Notes under the pieces: generated by a model
What the model saw: the letters and a program-made list of their open reading frames with translations, nothing else
The model's database searches: none
What the model was told of the DNA's origin: nothing
Position numbers and translations under genes: made by a program
NCBI GenBank assembly: GCA_965230295.1
Contig: OZ246001.1
Span: 2,944,001 to 3,008,000, forward strand
DNA: 64,000 nucleotides
Direction: 5' to 3'
From: Marinicella sp.
GTDB lineage: Bacteria; Pseudomonadota; Gammaproteobacteria; Xanthomonadales; Marinicellaceae
Shown here: one piece after another, positions 3,224 to 23,045 of the stretch
How positions within the stretch are numbered: the first letter of the stretch is position 1
How the letters are laid out: every line of letters starts with the position of its first letter

Positions 3224-4579
3224 ATGAATTTGGTGTGGTTTCGAAATGACTTGCGATTGGCCGATAACCCGGCTTTGTTTCATGCACTTAATCACCACTC
3301 GAAAACACAGGCCCTATTCATATTAACGCCCAAACAACACCAAAATCATGGTGAAGCCCCTCAAAAATTCGAGTTTATCAAAGCCCATGTGAATGATTTG
3401 ACAAAACGCTTGGCCAAAATGGGTGTTTTTTCGCAGGTATTTGAAGTCAATGACTTTTCTGATGTTCCTGATGTGTTCGATCAACTGTGCTCAAAACACG
3501 AAATTTCCGGGGTTTTTTTCAACACCAATGACTGGGTCAATGAGATTTTGCGCGATCAGTCAGTCAAAGCGGTTTTGACCAGGCAGGCTGTGACTACCCA
3601 TGAATTCCACAGCAATTACCTGTTGCCACCTGGTACGGTGCGTAAAGCAGATGGCAGTATGTACCATGTGTTCACGCCTTATAAAAGGACATTCATCGAA
3701 GCACTGAAGATCAATTATCATTTACCTTTGAATGTCCCGGATGCCCAAGAAGAAGCCATTGATGAACCCAAACAGCTGGCGGTTAATTTCGAATTGAATG
3801 ACTGGCCCATAGGTGAACAGGCTGTTGCAGATCGAATCAAGGTGTTTACTGGACAAAACAACTACCATGAAGAACGCGATTACCCGGCAATAGCCGGTAC
3901 CAGTCAATTGTCTCCATATCTTGCCATAGGGGTGATCAGTGCTCAACAATGCTTGGCCCATGCATTAAAACAACAAGGAGAAGCGGCTTTCAACAGTACG
4001 TGGGTTTCTGAATTGATTTGGCGGGATTTTTATAATGACCTGATGTTTGAATACCCAAAATTGGCCAAAGGACAAACGTTTAAAAAAGAAGCCACTGATG
4101 ACTGGGTTGATGCACCCGATTTGTACCAGGCCTGGCAACAAGGGCAGACGGGTTTTCCTATTGTCGATGCCGGGATGCGTCAGTTGCTCAAAGAAGGCTG
4201 GATGCACAACCGCGTCCGCATGATTGTTGCTTCATTCCTGAGTAAATTGTGCTTGGTCGACTGGCGTTTGGGTGAAGCCCATTTTATGGCTCATTTACTC
4301 GATGGCGATTTGGCCTCTAACAATGGCGGTTGGCAGTGGTCTTCAGCCACCGGATGTGATGCAGCGCCTTACTTTCGAATCTTCAATCCCACCACACAGT
4401 CTAAGAAGTTTGATCCTGATGGCAGCTATATCAGGACCTATGTGCCAGAGTTGTCTCTGCTAGGCAGTAAAGAGATCCACGATCCAAGACCTGAAATCAG
4501 GGCAGCCAACAGTTACCCACAACCCGTCATTGATTATAAAAAAGCGCGTCAGCAAGCACTGGCTTGGTTTAAAAAATAA
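3224..4579 (+). CDS. phrB: Deoxyribodipyrimidine photolyase (class I CPD)
   Basis: WFRNDLRLADNPAL, TSQLSPYL, GWMHNRVRMIVASFL, NNGGWQW, YFRIFNP; AGAGG RBS before ATG 3224. Confidence 0.93.
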   Translation: MNLVWFRNDLRLADNPALFHALNHHSKTQALFILTPKQHQNHGEAPQKFEFIKAHVNDLTKRLAKMGVFSQVFEVNDFSDVPDVFDQLCSKHEISGVFFNTNDWVNEILRDQSVKAVLTRQAVTTHEFHSNYLLPPGTVRKADGSMYHVFTPYKRTFIEALKINYHLPLNVPDAQEEAIDEPKQLAVNFELNDWPIGEQAVADRIKVFTGQNNYHEERDYPAIAGTSQLSPYLAIGVISAQQCLAHALKQQGEAAFNSTWVSELIWRDFYNDLMFEYPKLAKGQTFKKEATDDWVDAPDLYQAWQQGQTGFPIVDAGMRQLLKEGWMHNRVRMIVASFLSKLCLVDWRLGEAHFMAHLLDGDLASNNGGWQWSSATGCDAAPYFRIFNPTTQSKKFDPDGSYIRTYVPELSLLGSKEIHDPRPEIRAANSYPQPVIDYKKARQQALAWFKK

Positions 4580-4737
4580 AAAAATCATAAACTCAATATG
4601 ACAACTCATTTGATGAGAAATAATACAAATAAGTATTCAACAAGGCTTCACGTCCAAGTATTAAAAACTTAATTTTTCATACCGAATTTAATACCATGGT
4701 TTTATACTGAAATAAGTTAGCTCAACGAGAGGAAAAC

Positions 4738-5070
4738 ATGACCGACCCAACAAGACTCATTTGTGAAAAAGCCATGACATATCCAGGTGTGGTAAAAGGG
4801 CAATCATGTAACCAAATGGCCTTTAAAACCGGAAAGAAAAATTTCTTGTTCATTGGTCCTGGTGCTAAAGGCATAGGCTACAAAGCCATGTTTAAATTGG
4901 ATGCATCTGCCAATCAAGCACGTGAACTGGCAGCCAAAGAACCAGAGCGTTATCAGATGGGAGCTTCAGCAGGATGGGCAACCGTCAGGTTTACTGCTGA
5001 AAAGCCAATCCCCCAAGCTATTTGGCAAAAATGGCTCAAGGAATCTTATGATTTGAGTCAAAAGTCTTGA
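4738..5070 (+). CDS. MmcQ/YjbR-like (DUF419-type) small protein
   Basis: 110 aa; AFKTGKKNFLF, GWATVRF and WLKESYDL pattern; GAGG RBS. Confidence 0.6.
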   Translation: MTDPTRLICEKAMTYPGVVKGQSCNQMAFKTGKKNFLFIGPGAKGIGYKAMFKLDASANQARELAAKEPERYQMGASAGWATVRFTAEKPIPQAIWQKWLKESYDLSQKS

Positions 5071-5127
5071 ATAAGTATTGAATAATTCATGCTTTGTTTT
5101 TACTTCACAATGATTTATATCATCTAG

Positions 5128-5680
5128 GGAAAGCTGCTGAACAGCTTGACCCGCCGAGCTGGTTAGGCCACGAATGCAATCATGGCGGTTTGACGAAGTC
5201 AATAAGCCTTGATGAAATGAGTGATAAGACGTGAGCTATTGATGTTGCGGCCGCTATCGCTCCTTGCTATCGCGGCAGACCTACATCCATGTAGGCCAAT
5301 CAGAAGCGAAGAGAATAGCCAATGAACATGTGGCGATTTGACGAAGTCAAGAAGCCTTATGTGAATGGCGTTATAGCACAGGCAATGAAAGTTGGGCGGT
5401 TTTATCGAAGATAAAGAAGCCCGATTTGAATGCCGTAGTGCGTGCGAGATAGCATGTCATGTTCGCAGGTTAGGCAATGAATTCGTTACGGTTTTGCCAA
5501 AGGCAAAGAAGTAACGAGTGAATGCCGTAAACCGTGGACGCTTTCACTTTTGTCTGGAACAGACATACAGTGCGAAGCAACTGCTCAGACAAATAGTCTG
5601 TAAAGGTCGGTTTATTTGCGCAGCAAATATGAAGACCTGTCAGACCATGAACCAGAATGAAGCCCAAAGAACATTCCTTA
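5128..5680 (+). repeat. Modular structured non-coding element, copy 1 (array of GNA-triloop hairpins)
   Basis: At least five related arms of form stem-G(G/A)T-stem-(GAA/AAA/GCA)-stem-(G/T)AA-stem with compensatory changes; 5385-5447 matches the reverse complement of 22932-22994 at 62/63 nt. Confidence 0.85.
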
Positions 5681-5765
5681 TAATGTAACAATTGTTTAAA
5701 AATCAAATATTTACTTTGGATTTGATGTGGTAGGATGGAATCAAATTATATTTTGAGGAGGACAT

Positions 5766-6047
5766 ATGGAATCACTTTTACCATTAATCATACAATTGGT
5801 CAGCGGTGCAGTAGGCGGTAATTTAGCTGGCGGTATTTTAAAGAAATTTTCATTGGGTACCCTGTGGAATTCAGTGGTCGGTATTTTGGGCGGAGGTATA
5901 GGCGGTCAATTACTGGGTATGCTGGGCATGGGTGTCAGTGGTGGCATGGATTTAACCGGCATTTTATCCTCTGTAGCAGCTGGTGGCGCTGGAGGTGGCG
6001 TCTTACTTGGCATTGTTGGCATGATCAAAAAAGCCATGGGTAAATAG
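5766..6047 (+). CDS. Small Gly-rich membrane protein
   Basis: 93 aa, glycine-zipper-like hydrophobic segments, GAGGAGG RBS, downstream terminator. Confidence 0.75.
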   Translation: MESLLPLIIQLVSGAVGGNLAGGILKKFSLGTLWNSVVGILGGGIGGQLLGMLGMGVSGGMDLTGILSSVAAGGAGGGVLLGIVGMIKKAMGK

Positions 6048-6071
6048 TTTCATCCACTCATCTCCAAGAAG

Positions 6072-6097
6072 AGGGACCAAAGGACGGTCCTTTTTTT
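6072..6097 (+). terminator. Intrinsic terminator
   Basis: AGGGACC/GGTCCTT hairpin followed by a T-run. Confidence 0.7.
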
Positions 6098-6201
6098 ATG
6101 CCCAAGTGCTTTAATTAAACACCCGGTCAATTTTTTCAGTACAATGGCTGCCTCATCGAGGGATCAAGAATCCTTGTTATTCAAATGAATGGATTGATTA
6201 A

Positions 6202-6930
6202 ATGCAAAAACTTATCTTAGGTATATGGATTTTAGGGTTTTCCGGACCCTCAATAACTGATGTGTTGGGATTTTCTGTGGGGGCACAATATTGGCATTAT
6301 GACATGGACGGTCAAGTGGAATCACCTTTGTCAGATAACAGCACGGCCAATATTGATTTTTCTGGCAACAGCGACTTGAACCCATATCTTCAATTTGAGC
6401 ACCCGGTACCTTTTGTGCCTAATTTCAAACTGCAACAGAATCAAATACAGGCTCAAGGTATGTTTCCTTTATCCGATCCAGACCTCATGAACGGTCAGGA
6501 AATTTTGGTACGCGGTGATCTGGACTTCAGCCACACGGATTTGATGTTGTATTATGAAGTATTGGACAATTGGCTGAACCTTGATTTGGGCTTCAGTTTC
6601 AAGTATTTCGATGGTCACCAAAGGTTTCAATACCAGAGCACCATTGATGATGAGTCTGACTTTGATGATTTAATCCCGATGGTTTATGCCAAGGGTCAAT
6701 TTGATTTGCCATTCACTGGATTCTCAGCTTTGGCCACTGTTGAAGCTTTGAGTTTTGACAGCAATCATGTGACCGACCTTGATCTGGCGGTGCGTTATGA
6801 AACCTCATTGGGACTGGCAGCAGATTTGGGTTACCGAAATTTTGATGTTGATTTGAAGAAAATCAACGATTACAAAAGCCACATCAAAGCTGATGGGTTT
6901 TATCTGGGCGTGAGTTTTAGGGCCTATTAA
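6202..6930 (+). CDS. Outer-membrane beta-barrel protein (TIGR04219-like)
   Basis: Signal peptide; FEHPVPFVPNFKL and LYYEVLDN motifs; C-terminus altered by the adjacent MITE. Confidence 0.8.
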   Translation: MQKLILGIWILGFSGPSITDVLGFSVGAQYWHYDMDGQVESPLSDNSTANIDFSGNSDLNPYLQFEHPVPFVPNFKLQQNQIQAQGMFPLSDPDLMNGQEILVRGDLDFSHTDLMLYYEVLDNWLNLDLGFSFKYFDGHQRFQYQSTIDDESDFDDLIPMVYAKGQFDLPFTGFSALATVEALSFDSNHVTDLDLAVRYETSLGLAADLGYRNFDVDLKKINDYKSHIKADGFYLGVSFRAY

Positions 6931-7184
6931 CACTATGCAAATAGTGACTGCTGAAGTTACTTTTTCAATCCAGCAAGGCAAAAGTCGTGATGTGTGGTTT
7001 TTCTACATGAACGACTGATAACGCCGTTGGATGGGAAAAGCAGCCCAGCCCTACGGGTTAGGACTGAAATTAACCCACTCTATGTTGCTCATCACTTGAT
7101 GGGGATCACCAACTGCGCTCTTCGCGCCTTGATTGGATTAATTTCAGTCAAAACAGTAACCATTTGCATAGTGTTAACAGGCCC
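6920..7184. mobile_element. MITE (~265 bp, non-autonomous)
   Basis: 31-bp imperfect TIRs: GGGCCTATTAACACTATGCAAATAGTGACTG (6920-6950) versus reverse complement of 7154-7184, GGGCCTGTTAACACTATGCAAATGGTTACTG; no transposase inside. Confidence 0.85.
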
Positions 7185-10205: not shown

Positions 10206-10247
10206 TGTTAAGAGTAAATACTTCCCAGCGGTATCATTCCGAATGCA

Positions 10248-10664
10248 GTCATCCTGCGGCTTGACCGCAGGATCCAGGTTGAAGGTGCTTTAGTGTTGTA
10301 AAAGCATTAATTAATTTGATGGTCCATGCAGCCTGGATCCCGGATCGGGGTCCGGGATGACGAAGCATTGGTTCAATCTAACTATTTCGTCATGCCGGCG
10401 TAGGTCGGTATCAAGCGTCTTCCAAATAGACCTTACAACAGTGGATATTATCATCCTCGGGCTTGACCCGGGGATCCAGGTTGGAGGCGCTTCAGTATTG
10501 AAAGGGCCTTAATTAATTTGATGGGCTATGCTGCCTGAATCCCGGATCGGGGTCCGGGCAGATGAAATTCCAAAATACATACTGCATTCACCACATCCAT
10601 GTGGTTCGATGACGAATTAAAGAATTAAATCGAACCCGTCATGCCGGCGCAGGTCGGCATCCAG
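10248..10664. repeat. Cluster of GTCAT-type REP/REPIN-like palindromes
   Basis: Two paired units (10248-10361 and 10450-10613) with similar spacers, plus single CGTCATGCCGGCG.AGGTCGG.ATC arms at 10388 and 10637; lies between convergent genes. Confidence 0.85.
10558..10607 (+). mobile_element. 50-nt micro-insertion within a REP arm
   Basis: Removing it restores GGTCCGGGATGAC as in the sister REP ending at 10361; a related 49-nt module lies at 22846-22894. Confidence 0.6.
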
Positions 10665-21181: not shown

Positions 21182-22750
21182 ATGAAACACCTTAAATTGT
21201 TTTGGACTGTATTGCTGTTGCCAGCCTGTTTGCATGCAGGTGGGTTGTCGACCTTAACCCTACCGACCCGGCCTGATTGTGAAGGCCTTTATTTTATAGA
21301 CATTCAAGCCAGTTACCCCGGGGTAGATTTTGCCAATTTGGACCGCTTGTACATACCCCAAGGACATTACAGTTTCATCAGGTTGGGTAATTTACCTGAC
21401 AAAACTGCCGTCAATCCATTGGTCATCACCAACACCGGTGGCCAGGTAAGGGTTGGGGGTTGTGCTCACCATTACAATTTTGTCGTCTCAGGAGGCAGTC
21501 ATTGGAAGTTGACAGGTGAATACCAACTGACTGAAGCGACTGGAGATGCCCAATTTGTTGGTCACGCCAACGGACAATATGCACACTCTTATGATCAATA
21601 TGGCATTTTGATTGATGCTGAATATGGGCCTGGTAATATTGGTTTAAGTGTTGCAGGTGGGTCAACAGATTTTGCAGTGAGCTTCCTTGAAGTGAGGAAG
21701 TTGGGTTTTGCAGGCATGATGTTTAAGACCGACAACGATGGCAATGCACACATGGATAATGTGAAAATTCATGATAACTATATTCATGACACCATCAGTG
21801 AAGGGGTTTATTTGGGCAGCACCCAAAGCCAACCACAACACAAATTTACCAACCTTGAATTTTATAACAACCGCTTGATCAGGACGGGCACAGAAATTGG
21901 CCAATTCGGCAACCTTGGTGACAACAGTCGCATTCACCACAATGTGTTTTTATTGGGTGCTCTGGAGTGGAAAAACCCATTCCAAAATTTTCAGGACAGC
22001 AGCATCCAATTAGGCCATCGGGAAGGCAGCATGTCATTTGACCACAACATCGTGATTGGCGGGGCCAGTAATAACTTAATCTTCTTCAATCCTGATGTGG
22101 CCGGCGATCAACACACGGTGAATGACTTGGTCAACATCCATGACAATTATTTCGGGTTTTCACGAAACATTGGTGTATATATCCATTCATCCAGTGACGG
22201 TGTCAAACAAATTGAATTCAACAACAATTATTTTACTGAAGTGGTGTTCAGTTACGATGAACTCAATCCGGGAAGCACCAATCACCAACGCATCATCAGG
22301 TCATTCAATGCCGACAATCCTATTGGTTTAAATAACAACATTTATGAACCTCAAGCCGGGCAAAGTTTTTATGCGGGTTTTTCTAACATCACAGACAATA
22401 ATAATCAGCCTTCAAGCATTGATGACATTCCGTTTTACCAATTGGGGTGGCCTGGTTCTGGCGATTATTTCACCATGGAAATTTGGACGGCCTTAGATAC
22501 ACATGGTGAAACGGTCACCTACCAAGCAGGCGACTTGGTGGTTCATCTAGGCAGTATTTATGAAGCACAAAGAACCATAGACTACCAAGTCGATAATCAA
22601 GTCTCACCGGATAACGCACTGGTTACAGATTGGCTACTGAAACCACCCATGGCTGATGACGTCAGGCAGTTGTTCAACTCTCCATTTGCACACATTGGGT
22701 TGTTGGACCAAGTCTTGAGTGATGTGATTTTTGCTGATGGGTTTGAATGA
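21182..22750 (+). CDS. Secreted right-handed beta-helix protein with small carbohydrate-binding-like module and C-terminal DVIFADGFE
   Basis: Signal peptide; repeated IHDNYIH/IHHNVF/FNNNYF stacks; TYQAGDLVVHLGSIYEA resembles ChtBD3/CBM5-12. Confidence 0.65.
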   Translation: MKHLKLFWTVLLLPACLHAGGLSTLTLPTRPDCEGLYFIDIQASYPGVDFANLDRLYIPQGHYSFIRLGNLPDKTAVNPLVITNTGGQVRVGGCAHHYNFVVSGGSHWKLTGEYQLTEATGDAQFVGHANGQYAHSYDQYGILIDAEYGPGNIGLSVAGGSTDFAVSFLEVRKLGFAGMMFKTDNDGNAHMDNVKIHDNYIHDTISEGVYLGSTQSQPQHKFTNLEFYNNRLIRTGTEIGQFGNLGDNSRIHHNVFLLGALEWKNPFQNFQDSSIQLGHREGSMSFDHNIVIGGASNNLIFFNPDVAGDQHTVNDLVNIHDNYFGFSRNIGVYIHSSSDGVKQIEFNNNYFTEVVFSYDELNPGSTNHQRIIRSFNADNPIGLNNNIYEPQAGQSFYAGFSNITDNNNQPSSIDDIPFYQLGWPGSGDYFTMEIWTALDTHGETVTYQAGDLVVHLGSIYEAQRTIDYQVDNQVSPDNALVTDWLLKPPMADDVRQLFNSPFAHIGLLDQVLSDVIFADGFE

Positions 22751-22756
22751 CCTGAT

Positions 22757-23045
22757 AAAGGAATGTTCTTGCGGTTTCACTGAAATTGTTCCAAACAAAA
22801 CAGAAAGCGAATGCTTACATGGATGTAAGTATGCAGCGATAGCAGGCAGGAATTGTTCCAAACAATTCTCTGCATTCACCCCGTCCTAGGGATCGATGCG
22901 GTAGCTGCCGAGGCGAACATAAGTGACTACATCGCACGCACTACGGCATTCAAATCGGACTTCTTTATCTTCGATAAAACCGCCCAACTTTCATCACCTA
23001 CGTTGCCTAATCGGCTTCATGAATCAAGCTGTTATGCAGCTTTTC
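22757..23045 (-). repeat. Modular structured non-coding element, copy 2
   Basis: Shares the 5' AAAGCTG..CAGCTTGA hairpin, the 63-nt arm, the GCTATCGC..TACATCCATGTA module and the 3' AAGAACATTCCTT end with copy 1. Confidence 0.85.

Follow-up and report, generated by a model that had tools for sequence, protein, structure and literature searches.

The intergenic sequence at positions 5128-5679 of the window (the whole 64,000-nt stretch of Marinicella sp. DNA analyzed here) is a single 552-nt composite copy, on the + strand, of an intergenic repeat that is dispersed and whose left and right ends are fixed. We found this repeat at about 119 loci in the source organism's own genome (G000, 4.008 Mb), and its multi-helix fold covaries across genera. 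On balance, the repeat is best explained as a non-autonomous, fold-dependent, replication-coupled mobile element that is inserted as single-stranded DNA at the fork. A sequence-only reading of the window had claimed five hairpin arms in this place, forming a covarying array. All five arms were recovered where it had put them and the hairpins are real, but they do not make up a free-standing local array, since they belong to one copy of the dispersed repeat. Its description of a large, non-autonomous element is supported, in that the repeat has many loci and is constrained in structure.

The Element Consists of a Core and Grafted Rod Arms

The 149-nt form represents the core, with helices H1 and P2-P6, and the longer forms (236-633 nt) add rod arms at helix tips and junctions. 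Read along the strand from GGAAAG to CATTCC, hereafter the top strand, the 5' half of the core consists of GGAAAG, H1, GACC, strand X, the invariant GGTTGG, the P3 hairpin, TCAGAR, strand Y and a variable stretch. The 3' half continues with the 5' strand of P4, GCCGT, P5, G-YTTT, the P6 hairpin, AATGAA, P5', CAA, the 3' strand of P4 and TCCTT. X pairs with Y to form P2, a long-range helix around the small P3 hairpin, and P4 closes around a rod (P5-loop-P6). P3 usually has the form U-GA-GC / GC-GA-A with tandem G.A pairs, an arrangement (U-GA-GC...GC-GA-A) that may resemble the hammerhead core next to stem II. The unpaired joints GGTTGG, TCAGAR, GCCGTGG, (T)GAA and CAAG are conserved; in the TCAGAR junction, C58, A59, G60 and A61 were invariant and T57 nearly so in the alignment A1 described below. 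The right end was the most conserved part of the family, with 117 matches of at most 3 mismatches in the source genome, and exact matches to its pattern were present in other Marinicella records.

The inner part of the arms, GGC-G(G/A)-TTT-stem-loop-stem-AA(G)AA-GCC, repeats the P5-P6 rod of the core itself, an identity that was clearest in another genus (GCC-GG-TTTTCGCC...GGCGAAA-GAA-GGC). A loose rod pattern matched 127 places in the source genome. Of these, 91 lay within element loci, all 91 on the element strand, and at least seven stem versions occurred in the same frame. The arms with an outer closure were of three main types, namely rod arm 1 (17 identical copies), rod arm 2 (26 matches genome-wide, in nine sequence variants) and rod arm 3 (three copies, two identical and one single variant). 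The extra rods are grafted onto helix tips and junctions, so that the core pairing is kept in the long forms. The window copy, which was mapped onto the 149-nt core by eye, has a 135-nt branched insert at the P3 tip (with arm a), two arms between P2 and P4, one between P4 and P5, and an 87-nt insert at the P6 tip (Table 1).

In the window copy, arms b, c and d have the common outer closure G(G/C)CA-ATGA...GAA-TG(C/G)C. The arm stems differ yet stay complementary (AAGTTGGGC/GCCCGATTT, ACATGTGGC/GCCTTATGT and ATTCGTTAC/GTAACGAGT), with the internal loops GG(T)/(G)AA retained. Three arms have a GAA triloop, one of the others has AAA and the last GCA, and within the family, both in the core and in other genera, the loops vary freely. 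The earlier claim that loops are kept while stems change therefore held for the internal loops and the compensatory stems, and did not hold for GNA triloops as a family feature. Since the loops are not conserved, the argument that a GNA triloop means single-stranded DNA is weak.

Folding and Covariation Across Genera

As RNA, the window copy folded with -206.3 kcal/mol on the + strand, with a z score against shuffled sequences of -7.3, compared to -6.0 for the - strand. As DNA, the corresponding z scores were -4.2 and -3.9. Covariation was then scored in three alignments. In A1, a plain MAFFT alignment of 20 cores from different subfamilies of the source genome, 81.5% of the cells were paired against 37-43% with slid partners, and 23 of 45 pairs showed double changes. 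The other two were fitted to the model, which favours the model. A2 held 47 hits, in genus genomes, of the covariance model R1, which was built on the core; 34 of 41 pairs had double changes, and the score was 0.326 against 0.06-0.085 with slid partners. A5 held 28 hits from four genera, with double changes in 38 of 41 pairs and a score of 0.502 against 0.06-0.08. Kin sequences in these alignments, and in the counts given throughout, are not independent of each other.

The covariation extended to the individual helices. All seven pairs of H1 had double changes in A2, where 91.7% of the cells were paired. In A5, P2 was 85% paired and all five of its pairs covaried across lineages, and P4 and P6 were 95 and 94% paired, respectively. 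P4 occurred in the covarying versions ATGTTC/GAACAT, ATGTCC/GGACAT, ATGCTC/GAGCAT, CCGT(C)TC/GAACGG and ATCTTG/CAAGAT. These compensatory changes indicate that the structure is under selection, as had been proposed from the window alone, and the enlarged alignments gave the strong covariation that was to be expected if the proposal was right.

In the window copy, P2 and P4 pair over approximately 150 and 210 nt. Such spans, together with one-sided purine-rich loops with tandem G.A pairs, indicate that a single strand is needed for the fold, not a cruciform. The stem mismatches (51 G.T against 47 A.C) gave no information on which strand this is. A candidate ACCN/NGGT pseudoknot near strand X was rejected, as it was 65.0% paired compared with 65.1% in shuffled sequences and showed no covariation.

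Copies, Ends, and Flanks in the Source Genome

An initial search of the source genome with the window copy, in which 40 out of 136 candidates were scored, gave at least 78 matches. BLAST located 98 places, and the addition of an nhmmer profile of the shortest form brought the number of loci to 119. Every one of these was intergenic, and their spacing along the chromosome was irregular. The commonest repeat of at least 500 nt in this genome was the 633-nt form of the element. The nearest paralogue of the window copy, G000:C1:248789-249338, was 93% identical to it.

The left-end motif occurred 70 times, and in 68 cases a right end followed within 650 nt. The lengths of these pairs clustered at 149 (14 copies), 236 (7), 356 (4), 420 (3) and 633 nt (7), among others. 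Left ends without a right end were rare (2 of 70), and a few 5'-truncated copies exist besides the solo fragments described below. The genome also contains sister subfamilies with diverged left halves; several apparent truncations of 114-125 nt were rejected as artefacts of this divergence.

A flank scan found no target duplication at any offset, the best results being 12 observed against 5.1 expected at 2 nt and 5 against 1.5 at 3 nt. The inverted match between the termini spans no more than 6 nt (GGAAAG/CATTCC), and the termini have only GGAAWG in common. Hairpins adjoin both ends. The base at position -4 of the left end was C in 51 of 68 copies (background 0.188, p = 1e-23), in 19 of 28 rows of the cross-lineage alignment, and before all seven copies with a (G/A)GAGGC left end among the 10 copies read in a genome of another family (G045). 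Positions -3 to -1 were each A or T in 49-52 of the 68 copies, so that the left flank reads CWWW in degenerate form. Past CATTCC, the right flank was TT (66 and 64 of 68), followed by W-W-T. Besides the C at -4, no conserved upstream sequence was found among the 68 copies.

An empty site at the window locus was not obtained, as the relatives were too diverged and synteny was broken, and a comparison of rRNA-operon flanks was uninformative. One gene pair that is adjacent in the source genome has orthologues separated by the element in a metagenome relative, with the exact junction blurred by divergence. In four contig-type sequencing runs, the contigs broke at the repeat (pieces of run X1 end at 5164 and restart at 5650), and no joint bridging an empty site was seen, which is no evidence either way.

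Distribution Among Genomes

A DNA query found the element in 21 of 23 congeners and in none of 37 genomes of other genera. With R1, the core was found in 22 of 24 genus genomes, and in neither G003 nor G010. The copy numbers in these 24 genomes ranged from 0 to at least 82 (at least 82, 76, 71, 41, 19, 19, 15, 11, 10 ... 1, 0, 0) and are lower bounds, as 125 candidates were scored in each genome. When R1 was run on 121 genomes of the order, it additionally hit G045 (16 hits), one genome of the same family and another genus (G024) and one of a third family (G043). The model R2, built on all four lineages, had hits in 15 of 151 genomes, belonging to 4 of 61 genera of the order, and none in the remaining 136; a completeness filter had kept G045 out of that set. 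Outside Marinicella, the element is confined to a few related lineages in that order.

Two copies sampled per genome were 94-97.5% alike in five of seven genomes and 75-77% alike in the other two (G019 and G011), and copies of different genomes were 71-84% alike. As copies within a genome are more alike than copies between genomes, each lineage appears to have amplified its own variant. The metagenome matches came from other species, on long contigs resembling Marinicella, and none of the metagenome contigs examined showed an autonomous form that carries genes. Among the low-copy genomes no neighboring gene was shared. Viral contigs gave four pattern matches, none of which fitted the model, and these are attributed to chance.

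The units of G024 and G043 have no H1 and stand in head-to-tail arrays of 2-6 with a period of approximately 120 nt, in which only the last unit carries the terminal P6 hairpin. ORF-less arrays, that is, arrays free of open reading frames (ORFs), lie in intergenic spacers (L179, G024:C1:3942800-3946000; L180; and L183, G043), and G015 has arrays of approximately 120 nt as well. By our reading of the translations, the genes with such an array upstream include infA and uvrA in G024, and cvpA is flanked by arrays in G043. The source genome has an array of its own at G000:C1:1313017-1313525, with four to five head-to-tail units of 122 nt from a diverged subfamily without H1, and two palindromes of the repetitive extragenic palindrome (REP) kind are located just upstream of it. 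The sole copy of G013 is internally deleted to 91 nt (L117 1501-1591) and is located downstream of a gene scoring as an integron integrase (TIGR02249, 389 bits), at a distance of 70 nt; we took this proximity to be a coincidence.

Orientation Relative to Genes and Replication

According to crude gene calls, the genes flanking the 119 loci were arranged relative to the element as (+,+) in 34 cases, (+,-) in 32, (-,-) in 28 and (-,+) in 25. The tandem contexts, with 34 sense and 28 antisense, showed no sense bias, and divergent promoter regions were not avoided. Replication, on the other hand, was reflected in the orientation. With the origin at the GC-skew minimum (1.71 Mb, with dnaA at 1.721 Mb) and the terminus at 3.82 Mb, the top strand had lagging-strand polarity in 82 of the 119 loci (p = 4.5e-5), and by 50:18 among the 68 end-defined copies. 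The genes of this genome are 60% co-directional with replication. The polarity was complete in the two homogeneous classes of near-identical copies, with 14 of 14 copies in the 149-nt class and 8 of 8 in the 620-633-nt class. The window copy is among the minority orientation. In G024 (genus g2), where dnaA is at 2.64 Mb, the hits were on the + strand at 1.18-2.37 Mb and on the - strand at 3.79-4.02 Mb, and the polarity was the same in nine of ten loci if the terminus is assumed to be opposite the origin. The window copy was examined for sites resembling promoters or terminators, and none was found. An element that acts as DNA is suggested by this result together with the polarity toward replication, which is strict in the young classes, and the independence from gene direction, and the sequence-only preference for single-stranded DNA is favored to that extent.

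The same structures could belong to a multicopy noncoding RNA, in which each copy or tandem unit would be transcribed, with the core as a protein-binding or catalytic fold and the arms as peripheral parts. Long-range helices that covary and unpaired joints that are conserved in four genera would fit such an RNA, as would inserts placed only at helix tips and junctions with the core intact, and perhaps the hammerhead-like arrangement of P3. Moreover, the arrays of approximately 120 nt in G024, G043 and G015 and the 122-nt array of the source genome are reminiscent of tandem small RNA arrays, and all five G024 loci that were read point the same way as the downstream gene, judging from the ORFs. 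However, a transcript in the top sense would run head-on to replication in 82 of the 119 loci and in 22 of 22 copies of the young classes. The orientation in tandem gene contexts of the source genome (34 against 28) is unbiased, 25 of the 119 loci lie between divergent genes, no promoter-like or terminator-like site was seen in the window copy, and upstream conservation is limited to one C. Furthermore, G.U is not in excess over A.C, no Rfam family matches, ribozymes included, and some congeners have 0-1 copies. We consider it unlikely that the element is primarily an RNA of this kind.

A polarity that follows the replication fork may also serve the host. The repeat would then be a strand-specific DNA signal at the fork or in recombination or repair, with a fixed polarity like that of Chi or KOPS, for example, a site resembling those for priming or primosome assembly, a recombination hot spot, or a mosaic that binds nucleoid proteins or gyrase as BIMEs do. 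The polarity in two genera, the core sequence motifs conserved across three families, the intergenic position of all copies and the failure to identify a transposase are consistent with this idea, and there is a precedent in sedentary integrons, whose folding strand is kept on the template for the leading strand in 25 of 30 cases (PMC5371416). Yet 2 of the 24 congeners and 136 of the 151 genomes of the order yielded no copy, and other congeners have a single one, so that the element is dispensable. A near-identical subfamily in each genome is a sign of recent bursts, the composite, truncated and tandem forms resemble uncontrolled proliferation, and the chromosomal spacing is irregular. A host-serving signal is therefore rather improbable in our judgment.

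Search for a Mobilizing Enzyme

The single Y1 gene of the source genome encodes a RAYT-like protein of 187 aa with HVH and Y motifs (C1:1669261-1669824; L055 1300-1863). It is flanked by its own REP, GGAGCG-NN-GACTTCAGTC-NN-CG, of which there are 14 strict copies, the closest being 60 nt from an element. This RAYT and its REP form a small REPtron unrelated to the element studied here. Orthologues of the gene were present in only 3 of 23 congeners (G023, G003 and G012), and Pfam Y1_Tnp was not found in G021, G019, G024 or G045, which have at least 76, 71, 15 and 16 copies of the element, respectively. Among these, G021 is 99% complete.

These results bear directly on the proposal that the element is a REP/REPIN-like repeat or a miniature element derived from IS200/IS605 (PATE), moved by a Y1 HUH transposase, either RAYT or TnpA. 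Several observations would suit it: target duplications and long inverted ends are both lacking, hairpins lie beside both ends, the flanks are A/T-rich and conserved (CWWW on the left, TTWWT on the right), the bias toward one replication strand is strict in the young classes, and one Y1 gene exists in the genome. That gene, however, is flanked by a different palindrome and its orthologues are restricted to three congeners, Y1_Tnp was not found in four element-rich genomes, the conserved unit is a multi-helix fold of 125-150 nt instead of a 20-40-nt palindrome, and the left flank appears degenerate, with no fixed tetranucleotide. We regard mobilization by a Y1 enzyme as very improbable, and the link to HUH, RAYT and IS200/IS605 enzymes drawn in the sequence-only reading is, on the same facts, not supported.

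The tyrosine recombinases of the source genome comprise XerC and XerD, one invertase-like protein, a pair of P4-type integrases and a trio. Eight ORFs, seven of them tyrosine recombinases, were scanned for an integron integrase, and not one reached the cut-off. A search for Y2_Tnp (IS91) gave no match, but its control was silent everywhere as well, so that this result is uninformative. No Y1, TnpB, IS110 or reverse-transcriptase gene explains the element.

If the element is indeed inserted as single-stranded DNA at the fork, it would multiply within each lineage at the DNA level, and its folded single strand would be recognized by a trans-acting enzyme distinct from the RAYT of the source genome. 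Insertion would take place without target duplication, at A/T-rich sites with a C four bases before the left end and in one orientation relative to the fork. It is possible, though less likely than not, that the element, with a three-domain fold of ~130 nt that several families conserve and that bears repeated rod modules, is the substrate of a new single-stranded DNA mobilization system, different from Y1/RAYT, TnpB, IS110 and reverse transcriptase, or else a new self-propagating structured RNA. Which strand would be active is answered differently by two arguments: the flank logic, with a variable left flank and an inherited right end, points to the top strand, and a polarity of the IS608 type points to the bottom strand.

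Several observations weigh against insertion at the fork. No mobilizing enzyme was found in the families searched: besides the lack of Y1_Tnp in the element-rich genomes, the source genome yielded no gene for a TnpB Zn-ribbon or an IS110 DEDD protein, no RVT_1 match (the control was positive in 3 of 14 genomes), no multicopy insertion sequence and no transposase-like ORF between paired copies. The heterogeneous length classes show a weaker polarity bias (28:18). The top, purine-rich strand, if it is the active one, is mostly on the leading-strand template, the opposite of IS608, which leaves two options, namely an active complement or a bias produced by retention. Joints conserved over three families and expansions at helix tips are equally expected of a functional RNA. 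Finally, a same-species pair of an empty and a filled site was not obtained, so that we infer the exact junctions and the act of insertion itself.

Features of the Window Copy and Its Surroundings

The copy lies in a spacer (5071-5765) between a small ORF (4738-5070, +) and a 93-codon ORF for a glycine-rich membrane protein (5766-6047, +). Its features are listed in Table 1. The right terminus, at 5679, is CATTCCTT.

Table 1. Features of the repeat copy in the window, in window positions.
Feature	Positions	Strand	Remarks
Left flank CTAG	5124..5127	+	C at -4 is the conserved flank position, followed by three mostly A/T bases
Whole repeat copy	5128..5679	+	GGAAAG... to ...GAACATTCCTT; ends are where similarity to 68 other pairs of left and right ends stops
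H1, left-end hairpin AAGCTG-CTGAA-CAGCTT	5131..5147	+	Model helix 2
P2 5' strand (X), long-range helix	5155..5159	+	Placed by eye
Expanded P3 domain AGGCC...GGCCAA	5165..5299	+	Substitutes the core's small P3 hairpin; contains arm a and two more hairpins; based on comparison with the 149-nt core and the predicted fold
Arm a, GGC-GGT-TTGAC-GAA-GTCAA-TAA-GCC	5176-5221	+	Within the P3 domain
TCAGAAG junction and P2 3' strand Y (5306-5310)	5300..5310	+	Conserved junction
Arm b (rod arm 2), GCCAATGAA...GTGAATGGC	5318..5369	+	Inserted between P2 and P4
Arm c (rod arm 1), GGCAATGAA...TTGAATGCC	5381..5434	+	Between P2 and P4
P4 (closing helix) 5' strand ATGTTC	5459..5464	+	
Arm d (rod arm 3), GGCAATGAATTCGTTAC...GTAACGAGTGAATGCC	5473..5526	+	Inserted between P4 and P5
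P5 5' strand GGAC and remodelled P6 hairpin CACT-TTT-GTCTG-GAA-CAGAC-ATAC-AGTG	5536..5572	+	Region common to the 236-nt class
Arm e, AGGTC-GG-TTTATTTGC-GCA-GCAAATATG-AA-GACCT	5604..5638	+	Belongs to the 87-nt insert at the P6 tip
Right end AATGAAGCCCAAAGAACATTCCTT	5656..5679	+	Contains P5 3' strand, CAA junction and P4 3' strand GAACAT (5669-5674)

A 275-nt contig of a biofilm metagenome (run X3, record 17; seven differences and one gap) covers positions 4932-5205 of the window, that is, the end of the upstream gene and the first ~78 nt of the element. As it spans both, a related strain has the element inserted there too.

A second, degenerate composite copy of the family, of approximately 289 nt, lies at 22750-23038 (-) of the window, with the left end GAAAAGCTGC, rod arm 1 and the decayed right end GAAACCGCAAGAACATTCC. 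At 10240-10660 there is a different repeat family, with two tandem units approximately 215 nt apart and the GC-rich hairpins GGATCCCGGATCGGGGTCCGGG and CGTCATGCCGGCG(T/C)AGGTCGG. The contig depth piles up there (70.8 in X1), which indicates that this other family is multicopy as well.

Elsewhere in the source genome, about eight solo fragments consist of the last 21-30 nt only (GAATGAAGYCCCAAGAACATTCC, itself a small hairpin) and stand directly after gene ends. They include those on contig C1 near 205231, 918517, 2122443 and 3144766 (+) as well as 1195500 and 2100564 (offsets 2812553 and 1907492 on the reverse strand). The fragments may be deletion remnants, 5'-truncated insertions or minimal sites. 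In seven of eight long copies (620-633 nt; e.g., C1:524325-524957), the top strand contains an open frame with a length of 111-117 codons. The open frame of the 633-nt form was rejected as a gene, having no conserved start and extending into the flank, and the frame is probably a by-product of the purine-rich sequence.

Comparison With Known Systems

No Rfam 15 family matched the window at the gathering threshold, including hammerhead, twister, HEARO/omega RNA and retron msr, which agrees with the expectation of the sequence-only reading that no known family would be found. At E <= 1, window positions 4000-7000 gave just one chance miRNA match, outside the element, and the basic copies and the loci of G045, G024 and G043 gave none. 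A narrow word search on Marinicella repeats in titles and abstracts found no description of the family, and the accessible portion of PMC7691419 contained nothing relevant on repeats, palindromes or transposition.

REP, BOX, ERIC and Correia repeats are usually short palindromes whose fold is conserved only locally, and here a whole multi-helix architecture covaries across genera. The element tolerates modular growth, and its youngest classes stand in one orientation to replication without the known mobilizers of folded strands. If the explanation that we favor is true, the family would offer an entry to a new mobilization mechanism, with more than 100 natural substrates, copy numbers that range among species from 0 to more than 80, and both tandem and dispersed forms; otherwise, it would indicate a new nucleic-acid module that binds protein. 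On the practical side, short-read assemblies of Marinicella are broken by the repeats, and their masking or annotation is advised.

ERIC/IRU and Correia (CREE) elements are structured intergenic repeats of ~125-150 nt with longer variants that arise by internal insertion. The element is like them in size class and in its internal-insertion variants. Unlike it, they have long terminal inverted repeats, and Correia elements have TA duplications; the element has no duplication and a terminal match of 6 nt. For the same reasons it is not a miniature inverted-repeat transposable element (MITE) of the DDE-transposase type, as both the terminal inverted repeats and the target duplication are lacking. 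Nor is it a retroelement-derived repeat, as the source genome has no RVT_1 match.

REPs and BIMEs are highly repeated intergenic palindromes thought to act as single-stranded hairpins, with BIMEs forming mosaics (PMC6006769). The element resembles the REP/REPIN-RAYT systems in being repeated, intergenic, palindromic DNA in a genome with a single-copy Y1 gene. It differs in that REPs are single hairpins of 20-40 nt with a conserved 5' tetranucleotide that flank their own RAYT, and its unit extends over 125-150 nt and includes long-range helices. In the source genome, the RAYT is not flanked by the element, the two do not consistently co-occur across genomes, and the unit is not a short palindrome.

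Integron attC sites are similar to the element as sites of recombination or mobility defined by the fold of one strand, with conserved unpaired bases and a variable terminal structure. Unlike attC, the element has no cassette arrays, no integron integrase in the source genome and no conserved R/L boxes (GTTRRRY) across lineages. The sequence of its closing helix is not conserved between lineages, and its copies are scattered, either alone or as 120-nt tandems without ORFs.

For IS200/IS605, the orientation of insertion is set by the lagging-strand template, and single-strand transposition yields such a polarity (PMC5027513). The element shares with this family the absence of target duplication and terminal inverted repeats, the subterminal hairpins, apparent insertion beside a short flanking sequence and an orientation that depends on the fork (PMC5027513). 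In contrast, no Y1 TnpA/TnpB partner was found, the whole element is structurally constrained, and the flank motif CWWW is degenerate. Its purine-rich folded strand is on the leading-strand template, so that the active strand would be the complement.

BOX elements of Streptococcus pneumoniae (boxA-boxB(n)-boxC) were reported to be co-transcribed and likely to affect expression (PMC3049150). BOX and the element have in common that they are interspersed and intergenic, with fixed end modules, variable internal modules and extensive secondary structure, that they occur in one species group with no cognate transposase known, and that their large forms contain fortuitous open frames (PMC3049150). 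The modularity is alike in kind, with length classes that have common ends and differ by inserted arms, and there is no homology. The sequences are unrelated, and the element has hairpin arms grafted on a multi-helix core instead of a linear A-B-C string, a core that covaries across families and an orientation tied to replication. By their defining features, then, the element is neither a REP-RAYT system, a DDE-type MITE, an attC site nor a member of any Rfam family. In kind it comes nearest to modular repeats such as BOX, and as regards its likely mechanism to the miniature elements of the IS200/IS605 type.

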